Shown here in pieces: positions 10,529-39,342 of a stretch of DNA of 64,000 bases. How positions within the stretch are numbered: the first letter of the stretch is position 1; every line of letters starts with the position of its first letter. The stretch spans positions 177,682-241,681 of IMG/VR virus record IMGVR_UViG_3300028805_002025; one strand, written 5' to 3'. The notes beneath the pieces are model-generated. The model made no database searches, was not told the origin of the DNA, and saw only the letters and a program-made list of their open reading frames with translations. Source of the stretch: a virus (lineage: Duplodnaviria > Caudoviricetes). Made by a program: the position numbers and the translations under genes.

Positions 10529-11671
10529 TTACCCAATTTGTGTTATTCTAACATAACCGTTGCCAGAGTGACCAGTCTCATTACCGCCAGATGTAGATGG
10601 GAATGACGTATCACCTCCTATGGTTTCGGCATTGGAAAGATAATACTCACTACCAAGGGCATAACCACTTGGCTTATAACTACTTGAGGTTAGGACATAT
10701 CCAGAACCGCCTCCAGCAGCAGACCTTTGTGAATAACCGCCGCCGTACCAGCCGCCGCCACCACCGACGGTTCTATAGCTAGTGTTGTTAGCATATGCGC
10801 CTCCACCAATTCCAAAGTCTGCAAGTGTTCCTTGGATAGTACTGTTCTTTGTATTAGTTCCATAATAGGAATCTCCTGCTGCGCTTTGTGTACCGCCTTG
10901 TCCACCTTTAGCTCCATCAGAAACTCTATCTTCTCCATTTCCTCCTGTAGAGCCGCCGCCGAAGCCGCCGTTTAATTGGGCCGTAGAATTGTATCTACCA
11001 GCTCCGCCACCTCCGCCAGCTACTATAACTCGGCACAATAACGAATCTGTTCCAATTCTTATATCTGAAGCTCCGCCACCACTACCACCATAGTAGTTTG
11101 CTGAAGTGCCATAAGAATTACCACCGCCATTGAAGCCTCCACTATGGAAGCCAATACTAGAAGCATCTTCTCCGCTACCGCCTACATATACGTGTACTGT
11201 AGTAGGGCTGTTTATCTCTATAGTTCCTACAGAATAGCCTCCTTTGCCTCCAGTAGCACCTGTTATAGAACCACCTTGTGCTCCCCAACATTCAAACGTA
11301 TATGTTCCTGGCTGCAAAGTAGCTGTTTGTTTAGAACCAGTATAAGTATAATTTGTTACAACAGGTTCAAATTGTCCAACGCTTATGTTATAACTGCTAG
11401 ATGCATCAGCATAATTAGTACCACCAGTAATAGATGCTGTAATTGTTGCAGAACCATTAGCAACACCAGTTACAGTTCCACTACTATTAACTGTAGCCTT
11501 GCTTGTGTCAGAAGAAGAATAAGTTAATGTTCCATCAGATGCACCTGCTGATACTGTTGCCACATTAGTTACAGTACCACCAACACTAACAGATGTGGTT
11601 GGATTAGAAAACGTTACTGTACGACTAATTTTAGAAGAACCTTTCATTGTTCTTGTTCTTAATGTTTGCAT
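10529..11671 (-). CDS. Receptor-binding tip protein: Ig-like (Big_2) plus glycine-rich domain
   Basis: TYSSSDTSKATVNSSGTVTGV Big_2 motif; FECWGAQGG...GGGASDIR...VAGGGGG...GNGYVRIT glycine-rich domain. Confidence 0.75.
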   Translation of the reverse strand: MQTLRTRTMKGSSKISRTVTFSNPTTSVSVGGTVTNVATVSAGASDGTLTYSSSDTSKATVNSSGTVTGVANGSATITASITGGTNYADASSSYNISVGQFEPVVTNYTYTGSKQTATLQPGTYTFECWGAQGGSITGATGGKGGYSVGTIEINSPTTVHVYVGGSGEDASSIGFHSGGFNGGGNSYGTSANYYGGSGGGASDIRIGTDSLLCRVIVAGGGGGAGRYNSTAQLNGGFGGGSTGGNGEDRVSDGAKGGQGGTQSAAGDSYYGTNTKNSTIQGTLADFGIGGGAYANNTSYRTVGGGGGWYGGGYSQRSAAGGGSGYVLTSSSYKPSGYALGSEYYLSNAETIGGDTSFPSTSGGNETGHSGNGYVRITQIG

Positions 11672-11700
11672 AATATGCCATATATTATTTAAATCATTAT

Positions 11701-14487
11701 TTAAATTCCTCTAACGTATATTTTATTGTTAACGTTTATGAAATCTACCTCAACAAATCCGTCTGCTGGTATTGATAAAGTAACGTTTGACCCACTAGGG
11801 CATACGCTTGATGTACTGTTATGCACTATAGTTACATTTCTTGCAGCAGAAGACGTAAGCATTACATGCGCTGAATGTCCTGCAACTGGCATCTTTCCTG
11901 ATGCCAAACTAAGAGATGTTATATCTCCTGTTACTGTTAAAATAGTTAATGGTTTAGTACCATCGATTGTAACGGAACCAGATGTATTTCCATTATCTGA
12001 AGTTGTTGAAACAGCATACGTAATTGCTGAATAGTTAGTATCAACGCTTCCTCCTCCAGAATCAAGGTCAGTTGCAGTAGTTGCAGTTGTGAAATGAGGT
12101 GGGGTAAGCGCATAAGTATCTATTAATATGTTTCTTCCATATACAAGCTTTGACGCTGTTGTTGCTATAATACTCTTCTTTGCTGATACAATATTATTAA
12201 GTACAAATATACTTTGAACAGTACCAGATGCACTAATATTTATTCCATTAACAGCAGGCTCTATAGTATTATTTCTAATTACTGCCGTTCCTAAGTCTTT
12301 TTGTATTAAAAGGAACTTATCTTTAACTATATTACCTTCCACATATAATTCAGTAATAGCTGAAGCCGCTTCAAATAAGAATGTATCTGCTGAACTACTT
12401 TCTATATAATTATTTTTAATATAAACGTAATCTGCTGTTACATTATTATAACTATATGTTTTTGTCTCTGCACTCGCCACATAATATGGGTAGTGACCAT
12501 ATCCAATAAATCTATTATTTTCAACAAATAATTTACTACATGTTAGCTTAGGCTTAGATTTTACGGTTGTATTAAGGTCAGAATCATATTCAAATGTGTT
12601 TCCCTTCATTACAATCTTCTTAAATCCAGTAATTGTATTAACAGCATTTCTTATATTATTGTTTTCTACAATAATCACCGTATTATCAATATTATAATAA
12701 GTTGGGTCAATTGATGTTGTTATAAATCTTACTAGTGTAGGCTTTTTCGTACTACCGTCCATTACATATGGCTGGTCATAAGAACAGTTATTTGAAATAA
12801 CAAGAGTATCTTCTATACTATCTTTAACCCATCCAGCTCTATCTGTTATTGTTTCAGCACCTATAGCAATAGAAGGTGTCTTCATTATATTACCACTAAC
12901 TATGTGGTTGAAGTTTCCGAACTCACTTCCAGAAATTTCGTAGTCATATATGAAATTGTTTAAAATCTTATTGTTTTTACCCCTCATATATATACCAGCA
13001 GTTGTACACCCTTCAATTGTAACATATTCAGCGCATCCGTGCATATCAATTGCTGCTGGGAATCCATCCTTAATTGAATTAGCACGAATGTTTTTAACCA
13101 ATATTTCTCTGCCTATTACAGACAAATCATTATTTGCACCACCAATAGAAAGTGCGTGATTACCCCCAATGTAATCTCCACCTATAACGCTAATATTTTG
13201 ACATCCACCAAAGGAAATACCATAGCTATCAAAATCTGCGCTTTGATTTAGCGTTACATGGCATACACAATCAATTAATGACATATTATGGCAACCACTC
13301 AAAATAGAACATATTCTAAAATCAGTGACTTTAACATTTTCTATTTTTCCACAAATAGATGAATATATTACTAATCCTTGGAACTTACCATCTAATGTTG
13401 ATGGGTTGTTCATTTTAATGGTTAAATTCTTAATGTTGCAAGAAATTTGATTAAAGCCATATACTTTGCTTGAGCCTCCAAGATGTATGTATGAACCCAT
13501 AAGAGGATGTCCTAATCTAAGAACATTACCTTCTATACCTCTTATAGTAGCAAATTCACATTGCTTATAAGAGCTTCTGTGAGGCGAAAAACTATATTCT
13601 GTATTATCTCTTACAGAAACAACATCACCTGCATTAAACAAAGAACCATCCCCTACTGTTATGGTCTCATCACCTTTGTAGGCTTCAGAATTTATAGTGG
13701 TAGAAGTAAAAGTATCTTGATTCTTTGGTTTTACAACAAACGCTTGTGCGTTAGATGTATATTGGAATTTTACTATTGCATTATTTCCGTTAATGAATAT
13801 TGCTGTTTTATTATCTAACTCCTTACTGACATACACAGATGTAGTATATTCTCCGAAAGCATATTCATATTTTGTTGGTCCATCCACATTATTTATGAAC
13901 CTATGCCATGCATCAATATCGTTATTAGCAAACCAGTTCTGGTATACTACGTCATTTTTACAAGTTCCACTAATAGTAATGCCACTACCAAATTTAACAT
14001 TTCCGTAAAGGTAAGTGTTATCTAAAACTAATGTTCCATTGTTTATACTACCACCAGCAAATTCAAAAGTACATCCAGAAGGAACTGTCACACTGCTACT
14101 TATAGCATAATCATATGAAATTACATATACAACACTAGTAGAAGATAACATTTCAGTTGTTAAACTTCCATTATTTGGGTCCAGATACACTTTAGTTCCT
14201 TGTGTTGAGCCGCTGCCTTCTATTGTTATATTACCCTCTCCAAGTAATGATTGGTTGTTTATAGTTTTAATGTTAGTACCACTAACAAGTGTGTTTTGTT
14301 TAGTTGCTAATTTGCCATCTATAACTGAATCGGAAGAAAATGGTACAATTTCTGAATTTGTGTTCTTGATAAACAATGTTTCCTTGCCAGCAAATTTATT
14401 AACAGCAATTTCTCCGTCTAATAATGCTTGAGGTTGTCTATCTTCAATGGCACTTGTTATGTGTCTATATCTAAATTTTTTTGCCAT
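11701..14487 (-). CDS. Tailspike with predicted parallel beta-helix (putative capsule depolymerase)
   Basis: N-term anchor (P...LLDGEIAVN...LFIKN), Asn/Ile-rich beta-helix repeats, AAIDMHG; C-term adaptor ending IYVRGI. Confidence 0.7.
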   Translation of the reverse strand: MAKKFRYRHITSAIEDRQPQALLDGEIAVNKFAGKETLFIKNTNSEIVPFSSDSVIDGKLATKQNTLVSGTNIKTINNQSLLGEGNITIEGSGSTQGTKVYLDPNNGSLTTEMLSSTSVVYVISYDYAISSSVTVPSGCTFEFAGGSINNGTLVLDNTYLYGNVKFGSGITISGTCKNDVVYQNWFANNDIDAWHRFINNVDGPTKYEYAFGEYTTSVYVSKELDNKTAIFINGNNAIVKFQYTSNAQAFVVKPKNQDTFTSTTINSEAYKGDETITVGDGSLFNAGDVVSVRDNTEYSFSPHRSSYKQCEFATIRGIEGNVLRLGHPLMGSYIHLGGSSKVYGFNQISCNIKNLTIKMNNPSTLDGKFQGLVIYSSICGKIENVKVTDFRICSILSGCHNMSLIDCVCHVTLNQSADFDSYGISFGGCQNISVIGGDYIGGNHALSIGGANNDLSVIGREILVKNIRANSIKDGFPAAIDMHGCAEYVTIEGCTTAGIYMRGKNNKILNNFIYDYEISGSEFGNFNHIVSGNIMKTPSIAIGAETITDRAGWVKDSIEDTLVISNNCSYDQPYVMDGSTKKPTLVRFITTSIDPTYYNIDNTVIIVENNNIRNAVNTITGFKKIVMKGNTFEYDSDLNTTVKSKPKLTCSKLFVENNRFIGYGHYPYYVASAETKTYSYNNVTADYVYIKNNYIESSSADTFLFEAASAITELYVEGNIVKDKFLLIQKDLGTAVIRNNTIEPAVNGINISASGTVQSIFVLNNIVSAKKSIIATTASKLVYGRNILIDTYALTPPHFTTATTATDLDSGGGSVDTNYSAITYAVSTTSDNGNTSGSVTIDGTKPLTILTVTGDITSLSLASGKMPVAGHSAHVMLTSSAARNVTIVHNSTSSVCPSGSNVTLSIPADGFVEVDFINVNNKIYVRGI

Positions 14488-14528
14488 ATAATATTAAATT
14501 ATAAAATTTATTATTTTAAAAATCGTAA

Positions 14529-14560
14529 AAGGTAGTGGTAAATATTTCAACCACTACCTT
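14529..14560 (-). terminator. Intrinsic terminator
   Basis: AAGGTAGTGGT / ACCACTACCTT hairpin. Confidence 0.6.
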
Positions 14561-14571
14561 ATTAGTTTTTA

Positions 14572-15960
14572 TTAGAATGTTCCTGCGTCAAGGATTATAG
14601 TGTCTCCATCAACAGTCAAATCGCTAACTCCACTTGTAGAAAGTTCAGTAATCGAAATCTCTACATTTCCACTGCCAAGAAGTGTTTTATTAGCAACTGT
14701 CTTAATGTTAGTGCCACTTACCAACGTTTCTTGTTTTCCACTAAGTGCTGTGTCTACCTCAGTCTTTGTGTAAGTTGTTGCTGTGTCTGCTTTTGCTCCA
14801 ATTGCTGTATCAACCTCAGTCTTTGTGTAAGCGTTAGTAATACCGTAACCAGAAAGTGTTGTTGCTGTGTTAGCCTTACCTGCAAGTGCTGTATCAACCT
14901 CAGTCTTTGTGTAAGTTGTAGCAGCATCAGCCTTTGCGCCAACTGCTGTATCAACCTCAGTCTTTGTGTAAGTTGTAGCTGTGTCTGCTTTTGCTGCAAG
15001 CGCTGTGTCTACCTCAGTCTTTGTATAAGCATCTGTAATACCATAGCCAGCAAGGGTTGTTGCAGCATCTGCTTTTGCTCCAATTGCTGTATCAACCTCA
15101 GTCTTTGTGTAAGCATCTGTAATGCCATAACCTGCAAGAGTGGTTGCTGTGCTTGCCTTACCAGAAAGTGCTGCGTCAATCTGAGCCTTTGTATAATAGT
15201 TGGTAGCATCAAATATGTCTGAAATAGGAATGTTAATATTCTCTTTTCCACTATCAGCGTTAAAAGTAATTACAAGGCATGTAACTCCATCGACTGTCTT
15301 GATTTCAACATTGGAAACCATACCATCCTTGATAAAGGCGCTAGCATCAATATAAGCCTTTACGGTACTTCCATGCTTGAAATTAATTCTAGTTGTTGCG
15401 CTATCATATTCAGCGCCATCAAAGAAATCCTTGATGTTATTTGTAATTGCTGAATCTGCCTCGGCTTTTGTATAAGCATCTGTAATACCATAGCCAGCAA
15501 GAGTTGTTGCTGTGTTAGCCTTTGCAGCAAGTAAACTGTCCACATCGTCCTTTGTATAAGTTGTTGCTGTGTTTGCCTTACCAGCAAGTGCTGTGTCTAC
15601 CTCAGACTTTGTGTAAGTAGTAGCAGTATCAGCCTTACCATTGAGCAAACCATCTACCTCAGTCTTTGTATAAGTAGTAGCTGTATTAGCTTTGCCTGCA
15701 AGTTCACTATCCAAAGTATCAATTGCACCAGATAATGCTTCAATCTTTGTTTCAATAGCCCCACCGCCAGATGCTATTTTTGCATCAATTTGGTCTTCTG
15801 TAATGAATTTTACAACGTTACCACTGCTATTCTTTAAGAATAACTTTTCTCCTCCAGCTGCAATGTTAACAGCAATTTCCGCATCTTTCAACACAGATGA
15901 TGAAGGAGTAGCACCACTTGTTGAGGTCTTAAGATGTTGATACCTAAATGTTTTTGCCAT
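14572..15960 (-). CDS. Tail fibre segment with YTKTEVD repeats
   Basis: N-term anchor, tandem YTKxEVDxxLxxKA repeats, C-term DAGTF. Confidence 0.75.
   Translation of the reverse strand: MAKTFRYQHLKTSTSGATPSSSVLKDAEIAVNIAAGGEKLFLKNSSGNVVKFITEDQIDAKIASGGGAIETKIEALSGAIDTLDSELAGKANTATTYTKTEVDGLLNGKADTATTYTKSEVDTALAGKANTATTYTKDDVDSLLAAKANTATTLAGYGITDAYTKAEADSAITNNIKDFFDGAEYDSATTRINFKHGSTVKAYIDASAFIKDGMVSNVEIKTVDGVTCLVITFNADSGKENINIPISDIFDATNYYTKAQIDAALSGKASTATTLAGYGITDAYTKTEVDTAIGAKADAATTLAGYGITDAYTKTEVDTALAAKADTATTYTKTEVDTAVGAKADAATTYTKTEVDTALAGKANTATTLSGYGITNAYTKTEVDTAIGAKADTATTYTKTEVDTALSGKQETLVSGTNIKTVANKTLLGSGNVEISITELSTSGVSDLTVDGDTIILDAGTF
14740..15200 (-). repeat. Coding tandem repeat of mixed 57 bp and 84 bp units
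   Basis: Core ACCTCAGTCTTTGT at 14756, 14813, 14897, 14954, 15011 and 15095 (spacings 57, 84, 57, 57, 84); a related block lies near 15460-15690. Confidence 0.9.
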
Positions 15961-15993
15961 AATTCTATTTATTTTTTTTATGTTATTTTTTTT

Positions 15994-16959
15994 TTACGCA
16001 AAAGTTCCTGCGTTTAATATTATATTTCCACTTTCATCTACTATAAAAGTTTCTTGTATTGTTTTTACAACTTCTACTTCTACTTGTTCTTTAACTATAG
16101 TATCAGTTTGCTCTTTGGTGTAAACTTCATATTCTGGTCCGTCATTAGAAGTGTCAACAAATAGTTCAGTGTTAACGCTAGTAGGGGTCGTATCACTAAT
16201 CACGATGTTATCGTCTATTAATGTTGTCACACCACTTATTTGTTCATCTACTTGTTCCTTAGTATAAACAAGAACAGAACTATCCTCATTAACATCAATG
16301 AAAACCTTTGTATTTGAACTTATAGTATCAGCACTAGTTCCAATTTGAACCTCATAAGCATTTTCAGCTAACCCACTAATAGATTCAATTTTAGACTCTG
16401 TAGAAGACGAAAAATCATTAAATGAAGATTCATCCACCTTTGTGCCAACAATGCCGCTAATAGCCTCCAAATCACTTTGTAATGCCCTTTCAGCTAGTTC
16501 TTCCTCAAGTTCGGTGTCCTTTTCTTCGAGTTCTGAAACCTTTGTATCAACAGCCCCACTTAATTCATCAATTGCTTGAGATATTTTAGATATTGTGTCC
16601 CCACTGAGTTCATCTGTTTTTCTTTCAAGTACGTCAAGCCTATCATCTTGTTCATAATCCTTGACAACAACAGAATCAATCATAGAGTCAATTTGTTGCT
16701 TAGTATATACTTCTGTAACCGCAGAATCACTCAAGTCAATCCAAATTTCAGTGTTAACTTTAGGCTGGCCACTAGAAATTTCAACCTCATCATGGAAAAG
16801 AACTATTTCATCAGCATCGTTCTGTAATGAAATGGTCTCAGTACCTTTATGGTAATTAATAGCCAATTCACCTGGAAGCAATGAATCAGGTAGTTTTGGT
16901 TGCCCATTGTTAGAAACCACCTTACTTCTTAAATGCTGTATATGCCTTTTTTCTGCCAT
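15994..16959 (-). CDS. Fibre adaptor/hub protein
   Basis: N-term anchor, three repeats ending (W/F)(I/V)D...VYTK(Q/E)Q, C-term NAGTFA. Confidence 0.65.
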   Translation of the reverse strand: MAEKRHIQHLRSKVVSNNGQPKLPDSLLPGELAINYHKGTETISLQNDADEIVLFHDEVEISSGQPKVNTEIWIDLSDSAVTEVYTKQQIDSMIDSVVVKDYEQDDRLDVLERKTDELSGDTISKISQAIDELSGAVDTKVSELEEKDTELEEELAERALQSDLEAISGIVGTKVDESSFNDFSSSTESKIESISGLAENAYEVQIGTSADTISSNTKVFIDVNEDSSVLVYTKEQVDEQISGVTTLIDDNIVISDTTPTSVNTELFVDTSNDGPEYEVYTKEQTDTIVKEQVEVEVVKTIQETFIVDESGNIILNAGTFA

Positions 16960-16997
16960 ATTTATATATTATTTAAAAATATTATTATAAAGAATGA

Positions 16998-19571
16998 TTA
17001 GTTATATTTCCCTATTCTAAGTGTATATCCCATGTTTCTTCTAATCATAGCACCCTTTCCATTTACTCCATATACACATGTATTCCAATCTCCTGCTTCA
17101 GCATAATATGATTCTCCCCAATAAGTAGATGTCCACCAGCGTAAAACATCATCTGGAGTTGCTTGTTTTCCGATGGCTACACGACACTCATCTATTTGGT
17201 CTTTATAATTTAACAATGTAAGCATTTCCTCATATGATGGAAGATATGTGTGTCCTCCAACGGTAAAATCTCTCATAATCATTCCGTCTCCATCTAACAA
17301 AGGTTCAATTATGTTTGTGTTATATTCTCCATCATCCATACTTGTTGCTGCTGAAACTCCTGGTACTTGGTATCCAGACTGATAACTAAGTCTTGCCATA
17401 TTATAAGTTTCATCAACGTACACTCTTCTCTTCCAATTACCGTCAACAACGATAATAGAGTTTACTTGTCCTGTACCCTTTGTTGGCCAACAAGATGCTG
17501 AGAATAAATCACCATTTGTGTTCTCAATATATGCACCATCTAAATGAGTTGGGGCGTTAATAACATTAACGCTATAAGTTAATTTTTGGTCTTCTGGCAC
17601 TGTAATCCAACAGTTATTTGTTGACGCTGCACTACATGTGATTGATGCGTTTCCTTGATTAATACCAGTAACAGTACCTCCAGAATCCACTATTGCTACA
17701 TTTTCATTTGATGAAGAATATATTAATTCACCATCATAGTAATTAACTATAGTACCTCCAGAATCTACTATAATACATGGATTGTTTACTGTCTCACATT
17801 CATTTACAGTTGTTATCGGCTCGTTAGCATATTCTAAAGTGAGTACTGCCTTTTTAATTGAAGCAGCATAAAAAGAATCTGTAACACTACTTGTATAATT
17901 AGCATTTTCTGCTGAATAGTATGTAATTAAATTTGAAACGTTGGCATCTTTTCCTTGAGGTATTTCAGTTGAAAATGGACCGCCGTTTACGTTGTACATA
18001 ATCACACTAGTTCCGCTAGCTGGCGTACACAAATCTTGATATTCTCCATTGTAATGCAAATTTAAAATACTGTAAGCTATTTCTAATATTTGGCCTTGTG
18101 CCTTATTAATTCGTGTTTCATAAACTGCTGGTTCTGTTCTACTATACCATGCATTCCAATTGCTTGTTGCATCCATATAGCAATATACCGTCCAAGGTCC
18201 ACCTGCATTTTTTTTCTGTGGAATTGATAAACTCCAAGTTCCACTATCCCCTAATTTATAGTGCATTGTGCCACTTGTTGAAGGTTTGTTAACAATCAAC
18301 AAATCTTGGTTTTGTCCGTTATAAGTAGCATTACTTGGATATACAGTTATCGGACAATCACCTTTTTCTATTCTAGTAGTAACAGTTCCACTTACTGTGT
18401 TGTAGTTAGAAGTATAAATAGGAGTAAACTGCCAAGTAACTGTATAGTTACCTACGTTGATTGCGGTATTATTTTCATATGTAAAATTGCCACTCACACT
18501 TGCAACGCCACCACTAACTAGCGTTTGTTCTTCTTCATTATATTTTAAGTTAGGAATTGCTTGTGGCTCAGTTTGTACTGGATTTGCCTTTTTAATTACA
18601 TAACTTGCATCTGTTTGGGCAATATTATAATTACCACCAACTTCATCCATAATATGAGTTGCATAAGTTCCTGCATTAATTGTAGGGGTTATCGTATAAA
18701 TATATTCTACACTTGGAATAACTGTGTTTCCATCTTTAACAGTAACTTCTGTCGGATATTGTTCGTACCCATTATATGTAAAGGCAGATGGATTTAAAAT
18801 AACTGTTGGACTGCTAACAGTCTTAGGTGATATTGTAGTAACAATTGTCTCAGAAGCCTTGTCGTTATGATTACTATCGCCTACAATCCTCCAATAAGAT
18901 GTATATGTATTGGCATCAGTGCCACTTGGTATTACGGTACTCCAAGTGCTGTTATCACTGCTATACTGTATTGTGCCACCAGTACAGTAGCCAGCATTAA
19001 GCAATGCTTTTGAAGTGGTGTCATATGTTCTGTTATTAGCTGTAGGCGCTGTATAGGTAGGATTTGCCTTTGTAATTGTAAAGTTTACACTACCATTAAC
19101 GTCATAGTTACCACCACTAACATCACTAATATAAACAACTCCTGTACCAGTATTTACGTTACTACCATAACTAACAGTATATTCACTAGAAGGTATTTCC
19201 ACGCTGCCATCTTTAACAGATATAACAGATGGTTTCTTCTGACTACCATCGTAAGTATAGCTAGTTGGGCTGATTGTTATGGTTGGGTTATAAACGTATT
19301 TACTATCTATCACAAATGTTCCACTTGCTGTTCCTTCGTAATTGCCAATACCAGATACAACAACTGGATAACTCCCAGCGTTAACGCCTCCACTATTTAC
19401 ACTTACAACATAATCAGTGCTTTCTACCAAAGTAAGTCCATTAAGCACAACAGATATGTTTTGTGCTACTTGACTGTTTCCGTTGTATGTTGCGTTTGAA
19501 CATGTAACAACAGCATTAGTTATTGGTATAAAACTATGGGTAGTACTTTTTAAAAAAGCTCTTCTTCTCAT
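16998..19571 (-). CDS. Fibre/adhesin with Ig-like repeats and C-terminal C-type-lectin-like domain
   Basis: MRRRAFLKS start, repeated TY(N/D)G...NAG.Y units, Big_2, then DGEYNT...YLPSYEEM...WWTST. Confidence 0.7.
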   Translation of the reverse strand: MRRRAFLKSTTHSFIPITNAVVTCSNATYNGNSQVAQNISVVLNGLTLVESTDYVVSVNSGGVNAGSYPVVVSGIGNYEGTASGTFVIDSKYVYNPTITISPTSYTYDGSQKKPSVISVKDGSVEIPSSEYTVSYGSNVNTGTGVVYISDVSGGNYDVNGSVNFTITKANPTYTAPTANNRTYDTTSKALLNAGYCTGGTIQYSSDNSTWSTVIPSGTDANTYTSYWRIVGDSNHNDKASETIVTTISPKTVSSPTVILNPSAFTYNGYEQYPTEVTVKDGNTVIPSVEYIYTITPTINAGTYATHIMDEVGGNYNIAQTDASYVIKKANPVQTEPQAIPNLKYNEEEQTLVSGGVASVSGNFTYENNTAINVGNYTVTWQFTPIYTSNYNTVSGTVTTRIEKGDCPITVYPSNATYNGQNQDLLIVNKPSTSGTMHYKLGDSGTWSLSIPQKKNAGGPWTVYCYMDATSNWNAWYSRTEPAVYETRINKAQGQILEIAYSILNLHYNGEYQDLCTPASGTSVIMYNVNGGPFSTEIPQGKDANVSNLITYYSAENANYTSSVTDSFYAASIKKAVLTLEYANEPITTVNECETVNNPCIIVDSGGTIVNYYDGELIYSSSNENVAIVDSGGTVTGINQGNASITCSAASTNNCWITVPEDQKLTYSVNVINAPTHLDGAYIENTNGDLFSASCWPTKGTGQVNSIIVVDGNWKRRVYVDETYNMARLSYQSGYQVPGVSAATSMDDGEYNTNIIEPLLDGDGMIMRDFTVGGHTYLPSYEEMLTLLNYKDQIDECRVAIGKQATPDDVLRWWTSTYWGESYYAEAGDWNTCVYGVNGKGAMIRRNMGYTLRIGKYN

Positions 19572-29243: not shown

Positions 29244-29261
29244 GTTTATAATTGTCATGGA

Positions 29262-31049
29262 TTACTCGAAATTCATCGTTATTACATTAGCGGCATCTGT
29301 CACAGCACCAGTATTGCCTACATTATACAAGTAAGCAACTTGGTTAATCTTGCCGAAGTTATTTGCATTAACTTTCACACCGTTGTATACGCAATCCTTG
29401 ACATTGATTGTCCAAGTGGCAATCTTTGATGTATCGCCATTGAGTGCCACGTCATTACTAGCTGGTTGGAATATCATTAATCCAGCCCATTTGATGTCAC
29501 TCTTCTCAGCATTCTCATACGTCCAAGTGACGTTCTCAAAGTTGATGGTAACACCAGTTGCATTTCCATAGTTTGCCATTCTCAAAATATTAGAGGCATC
29601 GACCTTAAGGTTGAAATAAGAGTCCTTAATTGTGATAACGGCATCGTTAGCTACTGTATACACGTTGCACACGTTATGTGTAAGCATTGTGTTGTCAACC
29701 GTTACGTTGCTTGCATTAAAGCTCTTCACAAAGTTTGCCGTATCAGCGGTTGCTTGTGAACCCTCAAATACATTATATGCAGTAGAACCGCTCTCAACCT
29801 CTACGTTGTCAATGCTCATATTAGGGGTGTTGAAAATAATCTTTCCGTTTGTAGCACCCTTATTGCCATTAATTACTACATTGTCAACAGTAATGTTCTT
29901 GGCATTAAGCTTGATGTCGGATGAAGGAATATTTGCGTTTGACACAAATAGTGAATTATACTTTACGTCACTTGTCAATGTTGCAATTGTGTTCGCATCA
30001 GTAAGTACAACGTTACTTGTATTAGCATCAGCAGCACTTGGAATCTCGTTTACAACCGTCTGGTAGTCATAGTAACCCATGTCCAATTCCTTATTCAGCT
30101 TGATTCCCTCTGCATCAACATAGATTGGGTTTACGATACCATCACCAATCATGGAAGCAGCGTGAGCCTTAATCTTGTTATTTGCAAGAATCTTGATACC
30201 ATCGCTCTCATGAAGCCTTGCAGCCTCGATAGCATCATCAATTGCCTTCTGCACACCGTCAAGTTTAAGACCGTTCTCAGACACAGTTAAGAATGCCTCT
30301 GAATTACCGTCAATCTTGACAGATACCTTGTCACCTATAATCTCAATACCCTTGTCACCAACGTACATATTAACAAGGTCTTTCACGTTGATGTATATAG
30401 GTGCTTGACCTTCAACTTGGAACTGAATCTCAATTGCCTCGTCAGTTCCCTGTGGGTCTGGAGTAAATGTATCGCCATCCCAAGTACCCTTCACAACGGC
30501 TGCGTACTTTACGAACTGGTCTTTAGGAATGTTGATGTGCTCAATCACAGTATTACCTTGAGAAATTGTATAAACAGCTGCGTAATCACCGCTCTGTTGC
30601 TCTTTAACAACCCTAACAGTCATTGCATCCTCAAGGTCAGCAAGAGCCTTTGCCACAGTATTGCTAGCTGTGAACCCTTCACCAAGACGAGCATTCAAAT
30701 CCTCGATTGCAATGGTAAGGGTAGTACCATCAATACCGTCACCAATTTTCTCGTTTATAGTAGCAATCGCCTCACGAAGCTCAGTAACGTCAGATGCGCT
30801 TCCATCGATGTCAAGGATGGTATAAGATGACTTACCGCCACCAGAATCTTCCATTTCAGCAGCGTTAGCGTAGAAACCAACCAATGTTCTGATAACTGGG
30901 CCTCCACCTAAAGTTGGGTCAAGATAACGAGCCAACTTAGCAACACCATCATTCGTACCAACTTGAACGAGAGCTTGCTCTGCAAGCTGCTTTGTTGAAT
31001 AAACCTTACCATTACGTAAGAGTCCTAATGATTTAATATTTGTAATCAT
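29262..31049 (-). CDS. Fibre protein with C-terminal beta-helix-like domain
   Basis: KSLGLLRNG start, internal ELDMGYY, then Asn/Val-rich beta repeats. Confidence 0.65.
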   Translation of the reverse strand: MITNIKSLGLLRNGKVYSTKQLAEQALVQVGTNDGVAKLARYLDPTLGGGPVIRTLVGFYANAAEMEDSGGGKSSYTILDIDGSASDVTELREAIATINEKIGDGIDGTTLTIAIEDLNARLGEGFTASNTVAKALADLEDAMTVRVVKEQQSGDYAAVYTISQGNTVIEHINIPKDQFVKYAAVVKGTWDGDTFTPDPQGTDEAIEIQFQVEGQAPIYINVKDLVNMYVGDKGIEIIGDKVSVKIDGNSEAFLTVSENGLKLDGVQKAIDDAIEAARLHESDGIKILANNKIKAHAASMIGDGIVNPIYVDAEGIKLNKELDMGYYDYQTVVNEIPSAADANTSNVVLTDANTIATLTSDVKYNSLFVSNANIPSSDIKLNAKNITVDNVVINGNKGATNGKIIFNTPNMSIDNVEVESGSTAYNVFEGSQATADTANFVKSFNASNVTVDNTMLTHNVCNVYTVANDAVITIKDSYFNLKVDASNILRMANYGNATGVTINFENVTWTYENAEKSDIKWAGLMIFQPASNDVALNGDTSKIATWTINVKDCVYNGVKVNANNFGKINQVAYLYNVGNTGAVTDAANVITMNFE

Positions 31050-31185: not shown

Positions 31186-31211
31186 CTTGAGTTTTCAAAA
31201 TTATGGAATCT

Positions 31212-33116
31212 TTAATTGTATGTTTCATGCGCAAGCATTGCAAGAAGGTCGTTCACTTTCATGAATTCACCTTCTATCCAAAGATACATAGTGCCATCCT
31301 TTCTAATTTCAACAGCGTTCTTCCTATCTTCGTCAGATGTTCCAATACCAATACTAAATGCAGTCTGTGCTGAAGGTTCTTCTCCAGTATTACTTATATT
31401 ATATGTACCGAATGCAACCTCATACTCGTTTGTTCTAACAAGAGTAGGGTTTGTCACAATGCCTATTTCATCCTCAAGCTCATGGAACTCACGATGAAGT
31501 ACGTCAAGAACACCGTTACCTGTATTGGTGTAATTATCAACAGTCTCTCCAGTATATGTTGTGATAACATTTAACCTATTATATATATGTCTAGTATCAG
31601 CACTCCAACCACTATATATAATATCGTTGAGGTCATCAATCTGACTCTGCAAATAACCATCAGTACCTACCCTATTTGTAGTTTCTAATGCTAATGCATT
31701 TGTAAGGTCGCTTCTTACTCCCCCAACCTTGTCATTTACAGTATCATCAACATATGTTTTATTGGCTTTCTTGGCTAGGTCTGTATCTATTCTATCTAAC
31801 TTGTTGTTGATATATGTCTCTACACCATTAAATTTGTTATCAGTATAATTATTAGCCTCTTGAACTCCAATTGTTTTCTGATACACGGCATATTTTTTAG
31901 CACCCCATATGGTGTCATCATTCATTGAATCGCCACTAGTACCAACAAGAGTTTTATCACCATTTATTCTATCTTGAATCTCTTGGTCGAGTCTTTCATC
32001 AATACTACCAATCATACCACTGATTGCAGCAACAGTTGTAACAGCAGACTCAGCCTTTGCGTCTATAGCATCAATGGTATTTGCTAATGCAGCATCACCA
32101 TCTATTCTATCTTGAATCTCTTGATTCAAAGACGTTCTTAACTGTGACACTTTGTTATCAACCTCTTGAACATCAGTCTTATCGGCTTTTTTCCTGTCCA
32201 TTTGGTTGAACATATCCTCAACGTCACTAGTGTATGCGCTGAATGTTCTCTTATCAAGCTTCTTGCCAAGTTCCGTGTTAACATCTTCTATATCGCTTTC
32301 TATATTGCTAATTGTGGTATTAATAGAAGATATATCACCGCTTATAGAAGATATATTATCCTCTATATTACCTATTATTCCATCAGTGGTAGCAGTATAT
32401 GTTATGAATGAACCACTAAGTTCTTGAAGGTCTGCCTTCAATGCGAACTTATCTGGGTCAATTTGAGGAATATTGTCTATCTCTTCTTGCAATGTATCTA
32501 TAGCACCACTTAATACTTGAATATCGCCTGTGATACTCGATATGCTTTCTTGCTCAATAGATATAATGTCATCTATCTCATCCTTTGTGTATACATCTTC
32601 CTTCTTTGCATATGTATCTTCAGCTTCATCCTTATCTAATTTACTAGCCAAAGAATCTTGCAATGTATCTATAGCGCCACTTAATGCTTCAATGTCTTCT
32701 GTAACTCCGCTTACATCTACAATTTGCTGTTTAATCGATTCAACCTCTCCACTCAATGTATTTAGGTCATCGTCTATAGATGTAACACTTGTTATGATTT
32801 CATTGATTTTATTCGTTACCTCTTCATCATATTCTTCAAGTGCTGTTATCCTTTCAGTATTTCCACTGATTACATTTGCGAAGTTTGTATTTATATCACT
32901 CTGTAGACTAATGAATGCTTCTGTCTTTGCACTGAGTTCATTGACTATGGAAAGGTCAGCCTTGCCCTTCGTAGCACCGCTGAGTTCACTGATTTCCTCG
33001 TCTTGCTCCTTGTTTATCTTGTTGATTTCACTTAAATCAACGCTTCCAATAGCACTTGTAAATACATTTTGGTCTGGAAAGCCATAAAATTCTAAGTGTC
33101 TAACTTTTTTTCCCAT
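31212..33116 (-). CDS. Long coiled-coil fibre protein
   Basis: Acidic heptads, LSGAIDT and EIQDRI repeats; AFSIGIGTSDEDRKNAVEI resembles trimeric adhesin neck motifs. Confidence 0.7.
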   Translation of the reverse strand: MGKKVRHLEFYGFPDQNVFTSAIGSVDLSEINKINKEQDEEISELSGATKGKADLSIVNELSAKTEAFISLQSDINTNFANVISGNTERITALEEYDEEVTNKINEIITSVTSIDDDLNTLSGEVESIKQQIVDVSGVTEDIEALSGAIDTLQDSLASKLDKDEAEDTYAKKEDVYTKDEIDDIISIEQESISSITGDIQVLSGAIDTLQEEIDNIPQIDPDKFALKADLQELSGSFITYTATTDGIIGNIEDNISSISGDISSINTTISNIESDIEDVNTELGKKLDKRTFSAYTSDVEDMFNQMDRKKADKTDVQEVDNKVSQLRTSLNQEIQDRIDGDAALANTIDAIDAKAESAVTTVAAISGMIGSIDERLDQEIQDRINGDKTLVGTSGDSMNDDTIWGAKKYAVYQKTIGVQEANNYTDNKFNGVETYINNKLDRIDTDLAKKANKTYVDDTVNDKVGGVRSDLTNALALETTNRVGTDGYLQSQIDDLNDIIYSGWSADTRHIYNRLNVITTYTGETVDNYTNTGNGVLDVLHREFHELEDEIGIVTNPTLVRTNEYEVAFGTYNISNTGEEPSAQTAFSIGIGTSDEDRKNAVEIRKDGTMYLWIEGEFMKVNDLLAMLAHETYN

Positions 33117-33249
33117 AATTTATACAATTACATTTTTATATAAATATTTCAAATTATCGATTAATATACAATATAAGAAAAATTAAAAAAATTCTTCTCA
33201 AAAACAGCAACTTTTGTTAGTTAGGTGATAATTGTTATCAGCTAACATA

Positions 33250-33405: not shown

Positions 33406-33430
33406 AAACAATTATACATTAACTATATTG

Positions 33431-33470
33431 AAAAAAAGGAGGGTAAGACAACGCATCTTACCCCCTTTTT
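33431..33470. terminator. Bidirectional terminator
   Basis: AAAAAGGAGGGTAAGA / TCTTACCCCCTTTTT. Confidence 0.7.
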
Positions 33471-33495
33471 ATATATAGATTAATTAAAGTTTTGC

Positions 33496-34497
33496 TTAAT
33501 ATTCTCCGCAGTCAATAAGGTTCACATCAGCTTGTACTGTTGTCTTACCGCTAACATTTCTTGTAATGGTGAAACCAACATTATGTGCATCATCCTTTGC
33601 AACGAAATCATATTCCTCGATAAGTTCAGCCAATGGAACTCTCACCTCAATTGGTTCAGCAGATGAAGATGTGTGATATACAATCACAAGTTCCTCAGTC
33701 TCTTTATCATATGAAATGGAGTCAATGATAGAACCAGCATTAAGTGGTTTTTCAACTCCATTTACAATCAATGCGTTTGTTGCTGCATTATAGTCAACCT
33801 CAGTATATATGCCATCATTCTTAACTATAATTATATTACCTTCTACAGCACTAACGTTGACATCAGCCTTAACTTTCTGTGTCCCATCAATTGCTTCTTC
33901 CTTTGTAAGAGTTACCGTGTTAGTGTTCTCAACGGTTGTGATTGATTTTCCACTGATTTCATCAATCTTCTCAACAAGTGATTTTCCACTTACGTCCTCA
34001 CCCATGCCGATGAAGTCCTCAACAGCCTTAATTTCATCTGAAAGCTTTGTATCAGCATCCTTCAAAGATGTCGCACCACTGATGAATTTTGCATTTGGGT
34101 CTGCTGTATATGTACCATCAGCATTAAGTCCAGCGGCTTCAATGATTGCATCAATCAACCCATCAGCATCGTCAATGCTATCAATAATATCAGCAATCTG
34201 CTTAACAAAGCTTCCTTCTGCTGCGTTTGGGTCTTCAGTACCATCATCCTTAATACCAAGCTTATTCAATATTGTTTGGTTATCAACGAAGAAAATCTTA
34301 TCTTGCGCCTTGATACCTAACACATTGGCTATAGTGCCGTTAACACTCTTAGTGTCCATATATGAACCAAGTATGAACTCACCATCTGCCAAGGTTGAAT
34401 CCAATGATAGTATTCTCTGTTTAGCCTCTTCAACACTAATAGCAGGTACACCATTTCTCTTAAATTGTATAGTTCTTAATACGTTTCCCATAATCAA
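33496..34497 (-). CDS. Fibre segment/adaptor
   Basis: RTIQFKRN start, C-term DCGEY. Confidence 0.7.
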   Translation of the reverse strand: MIMGNVLRTIQFKRNGVPAISVEEAKQRILSLDSTLADGEFILGSYMDTKSVNGTIANVLGIKAQDKIFFVDNQTILNKLGIKDDGTEDPNAAEGSFVKQIADIIDSIDDADGLIDAIIEAAGLNADGTYTADPNAKFISGATSLKDADTKLSDEIKAVEDFIGMGEDVSGKSLVEKIDEISGKSITTVENTNTVTLTKEEAIDGTQKVKADVNVSAVEGNIIIVKNDGIYTEVDYNAATNALIVNGVEKPLNAGSIIDSISYDKETEELVIVYHTSSSAEPIEVRVPLAELIEEYDFVAKDDAHNVGFTITRNVSGKTTVQADVNLIDCGEY

Positions 34498-34534
34498 ATT
34501 ATATAATTTATTATTTGTTAATTATTTTTATTCG

Positions 34535-37009
34535 TTAATATGTACCACAATCAATGTCACCATTGAATATAATACCATCATTTGTTCTGTCAACCACAAT
34601 TAAGTTTGATTCATCTGTTGAAATCTTAACATCACCCTTAAGTGTGTTTGCTCTGTCTCTTTCAAGATGTAATGTAGCAGAATCTTCAACTCCAAGGCTT
34701 TCCTCAAAGTACTCTCTCAATGTGTCAAGTGCTCCGCTTACAGAATCAATAGGTGCTCTTGATACGTACAATGCACCATCATCCATTACCAAGATGTTGT
34801 CATCGTGACTATCGTTTATAACTACTGAAGCCTTCAATATATCTTGTTCTGTTGTTCCGCTAGCAACTCTTACCTTTTCAAGTTGAACTGCGTGTGGATG
34901 TCCATCTTCAACTCTCCATTCGTTAATCAAGTCACCTACAGGAATCTCAACAGTCTTAACCTCATGTCCGTTATTCAGATAAGTAATAACAATAGCTTCC
35001 TTACTTGGATTGTATTCAATACTGATGATTGAAGACATACTCTCAAGTTGAATCTCCTTCTCGCCATTGGTTGTGGTGAAGATAAGCTTATTAGCTTCCT
35101 CTATGTAAGAAAGGTTAACACCTGCATACAAGCCATCTGCATTAAGTTTGATTATGTTCTCTCTACCATGCTCAACCTCTTCGCTTAAATTAACGCTGAT
35201 AACAGGTTTTGTTGACTCTGTCTTATCAATATTAATTGACTTGTCAGTATTGATAATATCCTTAAGGCTATTTGCAGAATCACCACTAATTGTATCTATC
35301 TCTGATTGCAGTATATTGATTTCATCTTCAATTCCATTAATCTTTGCATCGTGTTCTGCATCATTTTCAGTTGAACGTTCAATCTCAGAATCAATCTTAC
35401 CATTAATTCTTGCTTCTTCATTGCTTGCACGTTCTACCTCTTCAGATAGTCCATTTGTTAATGTTTCTACATTGTTCTCAATATTACGTATTCTTCCATT
35501 GAATGTAGTATCTGCATCCTTCAATGCATCAATTTCATCAGCGACATTAGAATTTCTTCCATACTTAATGTTATCGGCAGTACCCTTAACATAGAGCATA
35601 TGGTTATTATCAACAAGGATGTTATCATCTGCTCTTAATATCTTAACGTCAGCAGATACCTTGTCAGCACCGTGAATGATTCTAGCTCTGTCTATGAACA
35701 CGTTATGTCCTTCATTTTGAGGTTCCCATTCCCAGCTATCCATCATTTCTCCGATTGGAATCTTAACCTTCTGCTGTTTTCCATTACCATCTGTATAAAG
35801 GATTACAAGTGATTCTGTTGCTGCCTCATAATAAATGTCATCGAACAACTTGAATGAATTAAGCTGAATTCTAGTTTCTTTCTTTCTTTCTTCCTCATCA
35901 TTTGTTGATGTCGTGAATACAAGTGTATTCTCACTGCTTATATATTCAAGTTTTGTAGAAGCAAAGAAGCCATCAGCCTTTGATGTGATAATATTATTAC
36001 TATCAGTTGATATTCTAATGGATGACAATTCATCCAATGCTTGCTGAACGTTAGTCTTACCAGTACTACTGTAGTAAACAATATTGGTAGCTTCGCCATC
36101 TACATAAAGATAGCGATTATCAATTGTCTTCTTCAATATATTATTAACACGCTCATCAGCGATTCTAACATCAGCAGACAATATATCTTGCCAAGGCTCT
36201 ACGTGATGATGGTCTACTTCCTCATCATATCCAACCTCTTTCCTTGTAAGCACGATAGGAGACTTTGTTGCCTCACCTTCTACAACCCATTCAGCAAGAA
36301 GCTCTTCAAGGTTAATAGTTATCTCGTCACCGAATCTAGTACGTATGTGCAATGATTCGTCTTGCGGCTTATATATTCCACTAACAATCTCATTACCTGT
36401 TATCTTGAATGCCTTTGTTGTATCATTTACGGTAAAGTTAAGAACACTAGTATCCTCGTCATAATCAACGTCAACGAACATAAACAGTCCGTCATCAGTC
36501 TTAATAATATGATTATCCTCGGCAATTCTGTCAAATACATGGTATTCTGCCACTCTAACGTCACCACTTATAACAGTACCACTATCAGTCTGTTCCGCAT
36601 ACAAGTCCAATGTATCTGAACTCTTTGCAATGACTTTGACAAGCTTTGCAAGTTCATTAATCTGTTCTTGAAGGTTGTCAATATCTGATTCTGTCTTATG
36701 GGTGTCAATTATACAGAATCTGTTCTTTGAATGCCTTTTTCCTTCGTCTTCATTTGTAACAGAGCCTATTGCGAGAATAACGTGTGGGTCAGTCTCATCA
36801 TCTTTGTTCTTATATCTTAGAACGGTTGGTTCTCCGAACAATGATAAACCATAAGAAACATCAACCGATGCAAGACCTTCTTCAGCATATTTCACTTCCC
36901 TAAAAATGTACTCTATAGCATCGTCTCTAGTGTCAAAAACACCTTCAACGGTAGTATAGCCACTTCCAATTCCGTGATGTCTAAATTGTAATCTATTGAT
37001 TGTATTCAT
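34535..37009 (-). CDS. Fibre segment
   Basis: RLQFRH start, repeated N.I....DGL(F/Y) modules, coiled coil, C-term DCGTY. Confidence 0.7.
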   Translation of the reverse strand: MNTINRLQFRHHGIGSGYTTVEGVFDTRDDAIEYIFREVKYAEEGLASVDVSYGLSLFGEPTVLRYKNKDDETDPHVILAIGSVTNEDEGKRHSKNRFCIIDTHKTESDIDNLQEQINELAKLVKVIAKSSDTLDLYAEQTDSGTVISGDVRVAEYHVFDRIAEDNHIIKTDDGLFMFVDVDYDEDTSVLNFTVNDTTKAFKITGNEIVSGIYKPQDESLHIRTRFGDEITINLEELLAEWVVEGEATKSPIVLTRKEVGYDEEVDHHHVEPWQDILSADVRIADERVNNILKKTIDNRYLYVDGEATNIVYYSSTGKTNVQQALDELSSIRISTDSNNIITSKADGFFASTKLEYISSENTLVFTTSTNDEEERKKETRIQLNSFKLFDDIYYEAATESLVILYTDGNGKQQKVKIPIGEMMDSWEWEPQNEGHNVFIDRARIIHGADKVSADVKILRADDNILVDNNHMLYVKGTADNIKYGRNSNVADEIDALKDADTTFNGRIRNIENNVETLTNGLSEEVERASNEEARINGKIDSEIERSTENDAEHDAKINGIEDEINILQSEIDTISGDSANSLKDIINTDKSINIDKTESTKPVISVNLSEEVEHGRENIIKLNADGLYAGVNLSYIEEANKLIFTTTNGEKEIQLESMSSIISIEYNPSKEAIVITYLNNGHEVKTVEIPVGDLINEWRVEDGHPHAVQLEKVRVASGTTEQDILKASVVINDSHDDNILVMDDGALYVSRAPIDSVSGALDTLREYFEESLGVEDSATLHLERDRANTLKGDVKISTDESNLIVVDRTNDGIIFNGDIDCGTY

Positions 37010-37038
37010 TTTTAATTGTATATTGTTATCAAATATTA

Positions 37039-39342
37039 TTAGATTTCACCGAAGTTTCCGTCAAACTGAACCTTAATGAAATGTTCCTCGTTATTGTCTT
37101 TTGTTTTAAGAACCATATTTGGCTGTTCTCCATCCAAACAAGCATTTAGAACGTATGGATTGTTAGATGGGTCTATCAACTGTCCTTTAATCTCATATTC
37201 TCTTGCTGTTGCCCTATCTTTTTCATCAAATAGTTCTTGTTCAATTTCATCTTCTCTTGCTGTTGCCCTCTCAATTTCAGTCTCTATAGCTCCGCTAAGT
37301 ACCTCATCAGCAGCGGCACGTTCTTCACGTTCTGTATCAATTGCGCCGCTTAAAGCCTCAATCTCTTCTTGAACTTGAACACCTCCTATAGCTTCCCAAA
37401 GGTCGGTCTCTGCTGATGTTGCACGTTCATACTCTTGATTGATAGCATCCCAAAGCTGCCCATCAGTTTCGGTTCTAGCTGAAGCCTCCTTAGCAATAGC
37501 CTCCCAAAGCTCTGCATCATCTTCCTCAATGTCAGCACGAAGGTCGTCTATTGCGCCACTAAGAACTGTATCGCCACTGATTCTCTCCTCACGCTCTGTA
37601 ATAATCATTCCACTAAGGATTGTATCAGACTTGATACGCTCCTCGCGCTCCTTGATGAGCAATGGAACTATAATATGGATTACTCTCTCTACAACAAGGT
37701 CGTCGGTGTTAACCAATATCTTGTTACAATTGTCGTCCTCAGTGAACACCCTGTACTCAATGTTGCTCTGTGCAACCTTTGGAATTTCAACCTCGATGCA
37801 GTCTGGTACATTGTCCTCGTACATTACACAAACTTCTGTGGTTGTGCCTGTACCCTGGTCGAAGCATGGGTTCTCAATAACGATGGTGTCACCCTCCTTC
37901 ATGATTCTCTTCTCCCAGTAGTATCCGTTCCACTCGTTGATGAACATCTCAACTCTCTTCTGTACAATCTCACCGTTGTTTACCTCAACAACCTCTGGTG
38001 CTGTTGCACAATCTGGGTCATACTCCTTGAAGTAGCTCTTGTCAGCGTAGTTTGAAGCAAGCCAAACCTGTCCCGCCTCTGGGAACAAGATGGTCTTATA
38101 AAGGATACCATCGATATACTCACTGTCATAGTAGTTGCTACCATCATAGTCCTTCACAAGTCTTACTGAATAGTAAGGACTTGGGCACTCTGCAACCTGT
38201 GTAACGCCCTTCTTCTCACAGTCAAATATCTTAACATATCTGTCCTGGGTTGGGTCATTGTGAACATGAGTTGAAGTCCAGAAGAATGCTTGCTCACGGA
38301 ACTGAAGCGCCTCCACTCTGTTCTGTCTCTGACGATATACAGCAGTACCAGCAGGAAGTATAGTCATACCATACTTGTCAACTCCAACTGGAGACTCTGG
38401 CTTGTAGTCTGGAACATCGTTGTTGAAATCCTCAATGTCACCGTTGCAGTCTGGATTTCCTGGCTCTACGAAGTAGTCCTCATCCTCAAGTGTGCATCCT
38501 GTATTAGGCTTCGTTACGTTGCACTCACAATCTGGCTGATTGCACCATCCGCACTCTGACTTAAGGAACTTACCTGCCATGCATCCAAGCTCGATGTGGC
38601 ACTGTGCTGAACCATGCTCACGGCAATGCTTACCTGGGTCACAAGGCTCTATAGAGTTCAAAAGAGCATCCCAGTCAGCCTTAGTAGGCACTCTCCATGC
38701 GAATCTCTCGTCTTCCTTTGAGTTCCTGCTGACATACAGCTCCTTCATCCTAGCCTCAATCTTATCAAGAGCAACACCGTTGTAAAGGTATCCGTAGTCA
38801 TTCACATATTCCTTCGTAACGTATCTTGTTCCAAGCTTAGCTACTTCTGGAAGTGTACCACCAGTAGTGAGGTCGAAGACACTCAAAGCTGGGGCTAACA
38901 TACCTGTCTTCTCCACACCAGCTATACCAAGTGGAGACTGCATAGTACCATTGCCCTTAAGCGTACCGTCTGTAATGACCTTGGTAAGGATATCGCTACC
39001 GATGATGTCCATAAGGTTGTCTGCTGTAAGAATGTTGGCAATTGATACCGTCTTCTTACCATCAACGCAATCATAGGAAATTGTCAATGTAGTTCCACTC
39101 TCACCACACTCAGCGTTTACTTCAAGGTTGTATGTGACATCATAAAGAGGAACAATAAGCTTCTCGCCATTGTTTCTAGTAAGTACAAGAGTCTTCTCGT
39201 CTCTGATAAACTCTGCCTTCTTAATGTCATTGTCCTTGAGGGTCAAGAAGTTGTGGTCTATCTCATTGATAGTCAACTTACAGTTCTTTGTTACGTCCTC
39301 TGGGTATGGGCTTACTAATTTGTAGTAATAAAGTCCGTTCAT
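37039..39342 (-). CDS. Proximal fibre protein with Fib_succ_major (FISUMP)-like domain
   Basis: LTINEIDHNF anchor; YGYLYN, WRVPTKADW, GKFLKS, ILPAG, FFWTST, YSVRLVKD motifs; coiled coil. Confidence 0.75.
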   Translation of the reverse strand: MNGLYYYKLVSPYPEDVTKNCKLTINEIDHNFLTLKDNDIKKAEFIRDEKTLVLTRNNGEKLIVPLYDVTYNLEVNAECGESGTTLTISYDCVDGKKTVSIANILTADNLMDIIGSDILTKVITDGTLKGNGTMQSPLGIAGVEKTGMLAPALSVFDLTTGGTLPEVAKLGTRYVTKEYVNDYGYLYNGVALDKIEARMKELYVSRNSKEDERFAWRVPTKADWDALLNSIEPCDPGKHCREHGSAQCHIELGCMAGKFLKSECGWCNQPDCECNVTKPNTGCTLEDEDYFVEPGNPDCNGDIEDFNNDVPDYKPESPVGVDKYGMTILPAGTAVYRQRQNRVEALQFREQAFFWTSTHVHNDPTQDRYVKIFDCEKKGVTQVAECPSPYYSVRLVKDYDGSNYYDSEYIDGILYKTILFPEAGQVWLASNYADKSYFKEYDPDCATAPEVVEVNNGEIVQKRVEMFINEWNGYYWEKRIMKEGDTIVIENPCFDQGTGTTTEVCVMYEDNVPDCIEVEIPKVAQSNIEYRVFTEDDNCNKILVNTDDLVVERVIHIIVPLLIKEREERIKSDTILSGMIITEREERISGDTVLSGAIDDLRADIEEDDAELWEAIAKEASARTETDGQLWDAINQEYERATSAETDLWEAIGGVQVQEEIEALSGAIDTEREERAAADEVLSGAIETEIERATAREDEIEQELFDEKDRATAREYEIKGQLIDPSNNPYVLNACLDGEQPNMVLKTKDNNEEHFIKVQFDGNFGEI

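Follow-up and report, generated by a model that had tools for sequence, protein, structure and literature searches.

The terminal 64 kb of the single-contig, 241,681-bp phage genome in IMG/VR record IMGVR_UViG_3300028805_002025 (positions 177,682 to 241,681; this stretch of 64,000 nucleotides is hereafter called the window) contains a cluster of 15 consecutive open reading frames (ORFs), all on the minus strand, which occupy window positions 10529-39342 and are denoted here g1 to g15 in transcription order. We propose, with a probability of about 0.7, that this cluster encodes several multi-segment tail fibres in which trimeric segments would be joined end to end, non-covalently, by connectors of three kinds; a set of four or five such fibres, each joined in series, appears most likely. 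In class A, the last strand of one segment (..h-x-h-D/N-x-G-x-F/Y-stop, the plug) would dock on the N-terminal beta domain (N2 or N1, the socket) of the next segment. In class B, a domain ending in YVRG would hold an exchangeable receptor-binding tip via a short RRR-type N-terminal peptide, and in class C a Phage_tail_C-like end (NTLY) would hold such a tip via a 35-amino acid (aa) SKxY..KLG peptide. Binding and orthogonality of the connector classes are suggested by synteny and co-variation; physical binding, trimer-on-trimer geometry and the baseplate sites of the chain roots are our inference.

The plug, D/N-x-G-x-F/Y, ends g2, g3, g7, g12 and g13, and its weaker form NFGEI ends g1. Alignment delineated two N-terminal domains, namely N1 (about 80 aa; g2, g3, g5 and g7) and N2 (about 55 aa; g8, g12, g13 and g14, with N2 profile scores of 73-93 bits); no Pfam entry matched these domains, even with the threshold relaxed to E <= 10. 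A preliminary description of this DNA, made from the letters alone, had treated these starts as one class defined by an R/K..Q/H..R strand. The common leading strand is indeed present, but the proteins fall into two classes: in an hhalign profile-profile comparison, N1 and N2 align over the leading strand only and without significance, and homology between them was rejected. All 15 minus-strand ORFs and all the termini quoted in that description were found, including an internal DMGYY motif, which lies not at 29262 but at residues 323-327 of g5 (29262-31049). The genome as a whole has 256 ORFs, and with the exception of one spurious 63-aa ORF the features plug, YVRG, NTLY, N1, N2, RRR and SKxY are confined to the cluster, which confirms that the motifs are real and specific to it. 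When the plug pattern is relaxed, the ends of g6 (EGRI) and g11 (IGKYN) match it as well, probably by chance, in the case of g11 because this end belongs to a candidate lectin-like domain. The genes of the cluster are as follows.

g1, 37039-39342, minus strand: 767 aa; Fib_succ_major domain; plug-like end NFGEI (37042-37056); followed by g2.
g2, 34535-37009, minus strand: 824 aa; N-terminal N1 (about 36755-37009; profile 56 bits); plug DCGTY (34538-34552).
g3, 33496-34497, minus strand: 331-333 aa, likely start ATG at 34491; N1 (34252-34491); plug DCGEY (33499-33513).
g4, 31212-33116, minus strand: 634 aa; start of a third type, N3 (..RHLEFYGF..); rich in coiled coil; no recognised connector at the C-terminus.
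g5, 29262-31049, minus strand: 595 aa; N1 (30810-31049; profile 77 bits); C-terminus without a plug.
g6, 28352-29173, minus strand: 273 aa; N3 start (..YRMYEPYGY..); coiled coil at the C-terminus.
g7, 26132-28324, minus strand: 730 aa; N1 (28085-28324); plug DCGTFD (26135-26152); followed by g8.
g8, 25051-26052, minus strand: 333 aa; N2 of the gp37 type (25873-26052); Phage_tail_C-like end NTLYIITD (25054-25122).
g9, 22198-25038, minus strand: 946-aa tip; 37-aa SKxY adaptor peptide (24928-25038); Big_2 and a glycine-rich ALK_LTK_GRD domain.
g10, 19660-21834, minus strand: 724 aa; YVRG domain of about 90 aa at the end (19663-19932).
g11, 16998-19571, minus strand: 857-aa tip; RRR adaptor peptide (19527-19571); Ig-like repeats.
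g12, 15994-16959, minus strand: 321 aa; N2 (16780-16959); plug NAGTFA (15997-16014).
g13, 14572-15960, minus strand: 462 aa; N2 (15781-15960; FRY subtype); shaft rich in repeats; plug DAGTF (14575-14589).
g14, 11701-14487, minus strand: 928 aa; N2 (14308-14487; FRY subtype); beta-helix resembling pectate lyase; YVRG domain (11704-11973).
g15, 10529-11671, minus strand: 380-aa tip; basic R-T-R adaptor peptide (11633-11671); Big_2 and a glycine-rich domain.

The clue to the nature of class A comes from phage T4. The N2 profile, built from the window and comparison loci, matches residues 1-54 of T4 gp37 (43 bits), and gp36, the product of the gene directly upstream of gp37, ends in ..QDFGYY. The motif D-x-G-x-F/Y closes 118 of 120 gp36 homologues, which range down to 56% identity, and the ends of divergent members, such as DYGEF, DYGIF and DFGSY, resemble the window plugs. 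According to the T4 assembly literature, the gp36 trimer first attaches to the gp37 N-terminal region (PMC3004832). Because N2 is homologous to this region, the gp36 family ends in a plug and gp36 binds the gp37 N-terminus, class A can be recognized by homology as the joint of the T4 distal half-fibre (gp36-gp37), so that a connector predicted from the window coincides with one known from experiment. As in T4, the downstream N-domain is homologous, the plug is at the extreme C-terminus of the upstream protein, and the genes are adjacent and in the same order. Unlike in T4, the joint recurs here from one gene to the next (g12-g13-g14 and, in locus L009, up to three times), a second socket domain, N1, is present, and plug subtypes ending in F or Y match socket subtypes; a hinge protein like gp35 was not identified here. 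The plugs also stand on proteins without the gp36 body: the Pfam profile PF03903 (Phage_T4_gp36), which scores 178 bits over residues 56-195 of T4 gp36 itself, matches none of the 15 window proteins at E <= 0.1, and the terminal plug is all that they have in common with gp36. The N2 family is large, with profile matches in 14,682 clusters at 50% identity (1,566 at E <= 1e-10), and among the 150 best of these clusters N2 is located at the very N-terminus, from residue 1, in 146.

Natural fusions point in the same direction. The protein P0010 (523 aa; a true table-11 ORF found in three samples, in one of them on a 177-kb contig) reads ..SDIYDAGTY, followed by an 8-residue linker and a full N2 domain, in one chain, and its upstream neighbour ends in DCGEIG. 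P0155, which is 75% identical to P0010 across the junction and has 11 members on 6 contigs, retains D-S-G-T-Y, the linker and N2. These fusions show that a plug and a socket can stand one after the other in a single chain, as serial docking predicts, and the proposed end-to-end concatenation of trimeric segments fits them. The 'split domain' of the preliminary description survives in this weak sense only, that of a plug and an N2 domain contiguous in one chain. An AlphaFold2 model of P0010 residues 285-400 (alignment A11) shows N2 as four strands and a helix at a predicted local distance difference test score (pLDDT) of 84-90, with the plug segment below 65, so that the model is uninformative about the interface; a Foldseek search against the Protein Data Bank (PDB) yielded no match. 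Prediction of a complex between three copies of the C-terminal 80 aa of g13 and three copies of the N-terminal 95 aa of g14 gave a score of 0.73, but one control reached 0.57, and the result weighs on neither side of the question of binding. Another kind of internal N2 is seen in P0047 (1012 aa), in which N2 occurs twice (residues 1-50 and 222-271), the second copy without a clear plug before it.

Gene order across phages carries the argument further. Loci were collected without reference to the partner: N2 was the sole criterion for those found with the N2 alignment (17 viral, 13 metagenomic), irrespective of the upstream gene end, and the YVRG domain was the sole criterion for those found with it, irrespective of the downstream start (L-numbers are labels of the comparison phage loci, 44 in all). 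In the window and the 17 viral loci, N2 genes have a plug-like end (..AGEF, ..AGTF, ..CGTY, ..GGTY, ..AGDY and others) on the gene upstream of them in 16 of 28 cases, whereas only 8 of 201 other genes are preceded by one. After dereplication across the window and other phage loci, 27 of 41 genes with a relaxed plug are followed by N1 or N2 versus 17 of 237 others (Fisher P = 4e-16). Co-occurrence and adjacency of the motif pairs are thus class-specific and conserved in divergent phages. The distinct neighbouring-gene pairs of the window and the 44 loci, sorted by the end of the upstream gene and the start of the downstream one, are as follows.

Plug upstream: N1 4, N2 19, RRR 0, SKxY 0, other 6 (23 of 29 to N1 or N2).
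YVRG upstream: N1 0, N2 0, RRR 3, SKxY 0, other 4.
NTLY upstream: N1 0, N2 0, RRR 0, SKxY 2, other 1.
Other end upstream: N1 8, N2 17, RRR 5, SKxY 0, other 303.

No cross-class pair occurs among these. Within the window, a gene with the R/K..Q/H..R start comes next after five of the six plug genes, exactly as the preliminary description had it, g3 being the sole exception; the plug-to-N2 neighbours are g7-g8, g12-g13 and g13-g14. There is also specificity within class A, given that plugs of the form A-G-(T/E/K)-F precede an N2 domain starting ..FRYxH in 10 of 10 cases (window, L001-L004 and L043; most of the ten come from related phages), and plugs ending in Y precede N1 or an N2 of the NIxxHxxHxKS kind, a pattern that fits co-evolution of plug and socket sub-classes. 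In L031, an N1 gene resembling g2 comes after an FNFGEI end like that of g1; a search with the N1 profile brought one new locus only.

The tip-holding connectors show comparable regularity. The YVRG ends form a homologous domain by alignment and precede, both times in the window (g10-g11 and g14-g15), a tip with a basic N-terminal peptide, as had been noted from the letters; in the YVRG-selected loci, the tip starts are MNERRRIL, MNNRRRVM, MNSLRRRIM, MDNFRRRLM and MLRRRLL. The RRR tip follows directly in 3 of 7 cases and within three genes in 7 of 7, with one or two intervening genes in the remainder. The class C pair, in which the NTLYIITD end of g8 precedes the SKxY start of g9, was likewise confirmed and recurs in L004, where the ..NTLYIITD end overlaps the start of the tip gene (MSMASSKLYL..KLG). 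Residues 311-332 of g8 resemble Phage_tail_C (PF24243; 19.7 bits, E 5.5e-4, below the cut-off of 23.7). The tips themselves are related: g9 (residues 38-658) and g11 (residues 16-653) have paralogous bodies, g15 residues 14-380 share 68% identity with g9 residues 586-946, and PF12810 (ALK_LTK_GRD) scores above its cut-off in both g9 (165.5 bits) and g15 (173.1 bits). On these common bodies, the first 13-37 residues differ and vary with the connector class of the preceding gene (NTLY for g9; YVRG for g11 and g15). The junction DNA has no meaningful identity within the genome, and conservation is therefore at the peptide or protein level. As a lead, the C-terminus of g11 might be a Lcl_C/DUF1566-like, lectin-like domain.

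In four loci, a conserved gene of about 200 aa (..YIRK..GYY.E....YW.GKIGSTYEDF..), absent from the window, lies between the YVRG fibre gene and the RRR tip gene; it may encode a tip-assembly chaperone. Its positions are as follows.

L035, 4326-4925.
L037, 4339-5031.
L038, 4364-4993.
L040/L009, about 12436-13029 in L009.

Taken together, the connectors would wire the cluster into the chains g1-g2-g3, g6(?)-g7-g8-g9, g10-g11 and g12-g13-g14-g15, with g4 and g5 outside. In this scheme g14 is a mid-chain segment, with a YVRG domain at its end and g15 next, rather than the beta-helix tip envisaged earlier, and for this reason the count of at least five tips in the preliminary description was loose. 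A link from g3 to g12 is a reasonable guess, because g3 has a free plug, g12 is the only N2 gene of the window without a plug gene upstream, and the g12 subtype of N2 follows Y-type plugs in 4 of 6 other loci. The interpretation offered in that description, of orthogonal docking pairs that let segments concatenate and branch, is thus partly supported: serial class-specific pairing is backed by gene adjacency, the T4 joint and the natural fusions, and branching is not.

In a branched network, some segments would each offer two docking sites and a single root would carry several tips, an arrangement like that of CBA120, phiKp24 or RaK2. Such systems are documented in jumbo phages, and phiKp24 and RaK2 (PMC9700779, PMC10253068) resemble the present phage in being jumbo myophages with more than 10 fibre or spike genes in one cluster and presumed conserved N-terminal anchors. 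Moreover, the sockets in the window (8) outnumber the plugs (6), and the g3 plug and the g12 N2 socket lack neighbours and could pair. That pairing would, however, lengthen a chain rather than branch it; no protein with two plugs, two sockets or an internal side socket was found, and Pfam and PHROG scans of the 15 protein sequences detected no T4 gp10-like branching domain. Unlike in phiKp24 and RaK2, the connectors are arranged end to end, and linear chains account for every adjacent pair, so we consider a branched network unlikely. About equally improbable is that the proteins form independent fibres, with N1 or N2 binding the baseplate, the C-terminal motif capping the trimer and adjacency resulting from tandem duplication of two-ended genes. 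This would be in keeping with the presence of N1 or N2 in five of the six window plug genes, with the frequent N2 genes that have no plug upstream and with the weak permutation test described below. Yet there are chain-first genes with a plug but without N1 or N2 (T4 gp36 and the N3 proteins of L001-L004 and L043) and chain-last genes with N2 but without a plug (T4 gp37, g8 and g14); independent fibres are also at odds with the known binding of gp36 to the gp37 N-terminus and with the plug-linker-N2 fusions, and leave classes B and C, where the partners are unrelated proteins, unexplained. Finally, the conserved gene ends might be mere recombination boundaries for module shuffling, with no role in docking. 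The fibre genes are mosaic and the tips g9, g11 and g15 have clearly been exchanged, but the peptide motifs persist in very divergent phages and in T4, and junction DNA was rejected as a set of recombination cassettes on account of its lack of meaningful identity within the genome; we regard this possibility as very improbable.

Several observations weigh against serial docking itself. In the window alone, 5 plug-to-socket neighbours were counted versus 2.5-2.9 expected (permutation P = 0.015-0.044), which is barely significant because several genes carry both ends. The plug of g3 is followed by a gap of 379 nt and then g4, making g3 the only plug gene in the window without a socket gene directly downstream; a socketless plug gene is also seen in L043. 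Conversely, 12 of 28 N2 genes, and those in most loci of a further set, have no upstream plug gene, and N2 would therefore also dock on other partners. The plug is short, at only about 5-8 residues, several loci are interrelated so that the counts overstate independence, and the RRR and SKxY patterns were written post hoc, after the data had been seen. Class C is replicated in one lineage only, as a search with its peptide returned the L004 contig again and no further lineage. In PDB sequence searches with N2 profiles and the T4 gp37 N-terminus, neither a solved relative nor a structure of the joint came to light; a 2026 preprint models the T4 fibre at low resolution only.

Classes B and C would have functional parallels in other phages. 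The gp38 adhesin of T2/S16-type phages sits on the tip of gp37. In KP32, K11 and KP34, podophages of Klebsiella, the RBP2 docking peptide attaches to the RBP1 branching domain (PMC13352976). What these share with the window is a separate tip, encoded just downstream, that is held on the fibre end through a short conserved N-terminal element, which for classes B and C is our inference. The sequences are unrelated, and in the window the role of holder would fall to a YVRG domain or to an end resembling Phage_tail_C, with RRR-type or SKxY..KLG peptides as putative adaptors.

Additional features of the fibre proteins deserve mention. N3 (..R-x-h-E-P/F-Y/W-G-Y/F..), the third N-terminal class, is found in g4 and g6 and heads fibre chains in L001-L004, L010 and L043; because N3 starts head chains in L001-L004 and L043, g4 and g6 may be baseplate-proximal anchors or roots. 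A g4-type start is also present in L003, and outside the window a 66-aa ORF (C1:73376-73576 of the genome) starts nearly as g4 does (MKKKVRTLEFYGF). The g13 shaft consists of many ..TATTYTKTEVDTA.. repeats (phrog_5004, five stretches), and its near-C-terminal unit ..SGTNIKT..LLG.GN.. recurs in g14 just behind N2, with 62% identity over 34 aa. In g8, a His-rich stretch (..NHTHSEY..SH..) accompanies GHITAGT and YGRVTSG repeats and is reminiscent, together with them, of the metal-binding His boxes in T-even gp37 shafts. Cys is common in plugs (D-C-G; 26135-26152, 33499-33513 and 34538-34552), and the leading strand of N2 (about 26020-26052 and 16927-16959) carries one or two conserved His residues (RHISHLKS; nearly invariant in alignment A11). 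Three Cys and three His on the trimer axis could, judging from these residues, form a metal site at the joint; the T4 joint has neither the plug Cys nor the N2 His.

The genes that adjoin the cluster in the window are as follows.

200-3673: very large tail-sheath gene (1,157 aa).
5773-6645: ART-PolyVal ADP-ribosyltransferase-like protein.
6755-10048: family-B DNA polymerase.

With these genes in a genome of 241,681 bp, the virus is a jumbo contractile-tailed phage; megablast and tblastn searches gave no significant match among cultured phages. In the related 150-kb contig L031, a polymerase-like fragment (8528-9871) and a large endonuclease-like ORF (10194-12077), both on the minus strand, follow the fibre cluster, which suggests a mobile-element insertion beside the fibre genes.

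The literature that we searched contains no motif-level description of these connector pairs; the cluster would thus combine the known gp36-gp37 joint, in iterated form, with two tip-docking pairs that are apparently undescribed. It is possible, though doubtful, that the three classes and the F/Y sub-classes constitute an orthogonal docking code of many uncultured large phages, with a wiring that could be read, and re-wired, from gene ends, and with g3 taking g12 into a seven-protein chain or a branch point. The fibre wiring of uncultured phages is usually unknown and cannot be read from annotation; if the connectors are true docking joints, segment order and tip identity would be predictable from sequence. 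The gp37-type N-domain alone, which is not in Pfam, accounts for about 14,700 clusters at 50% identity. The T4 gp36-gp37 joint, long known but structurally unsolved, thereby gains a sequence definition, which would be usable for modular engineering of host range in laboratory phage-host pairs.

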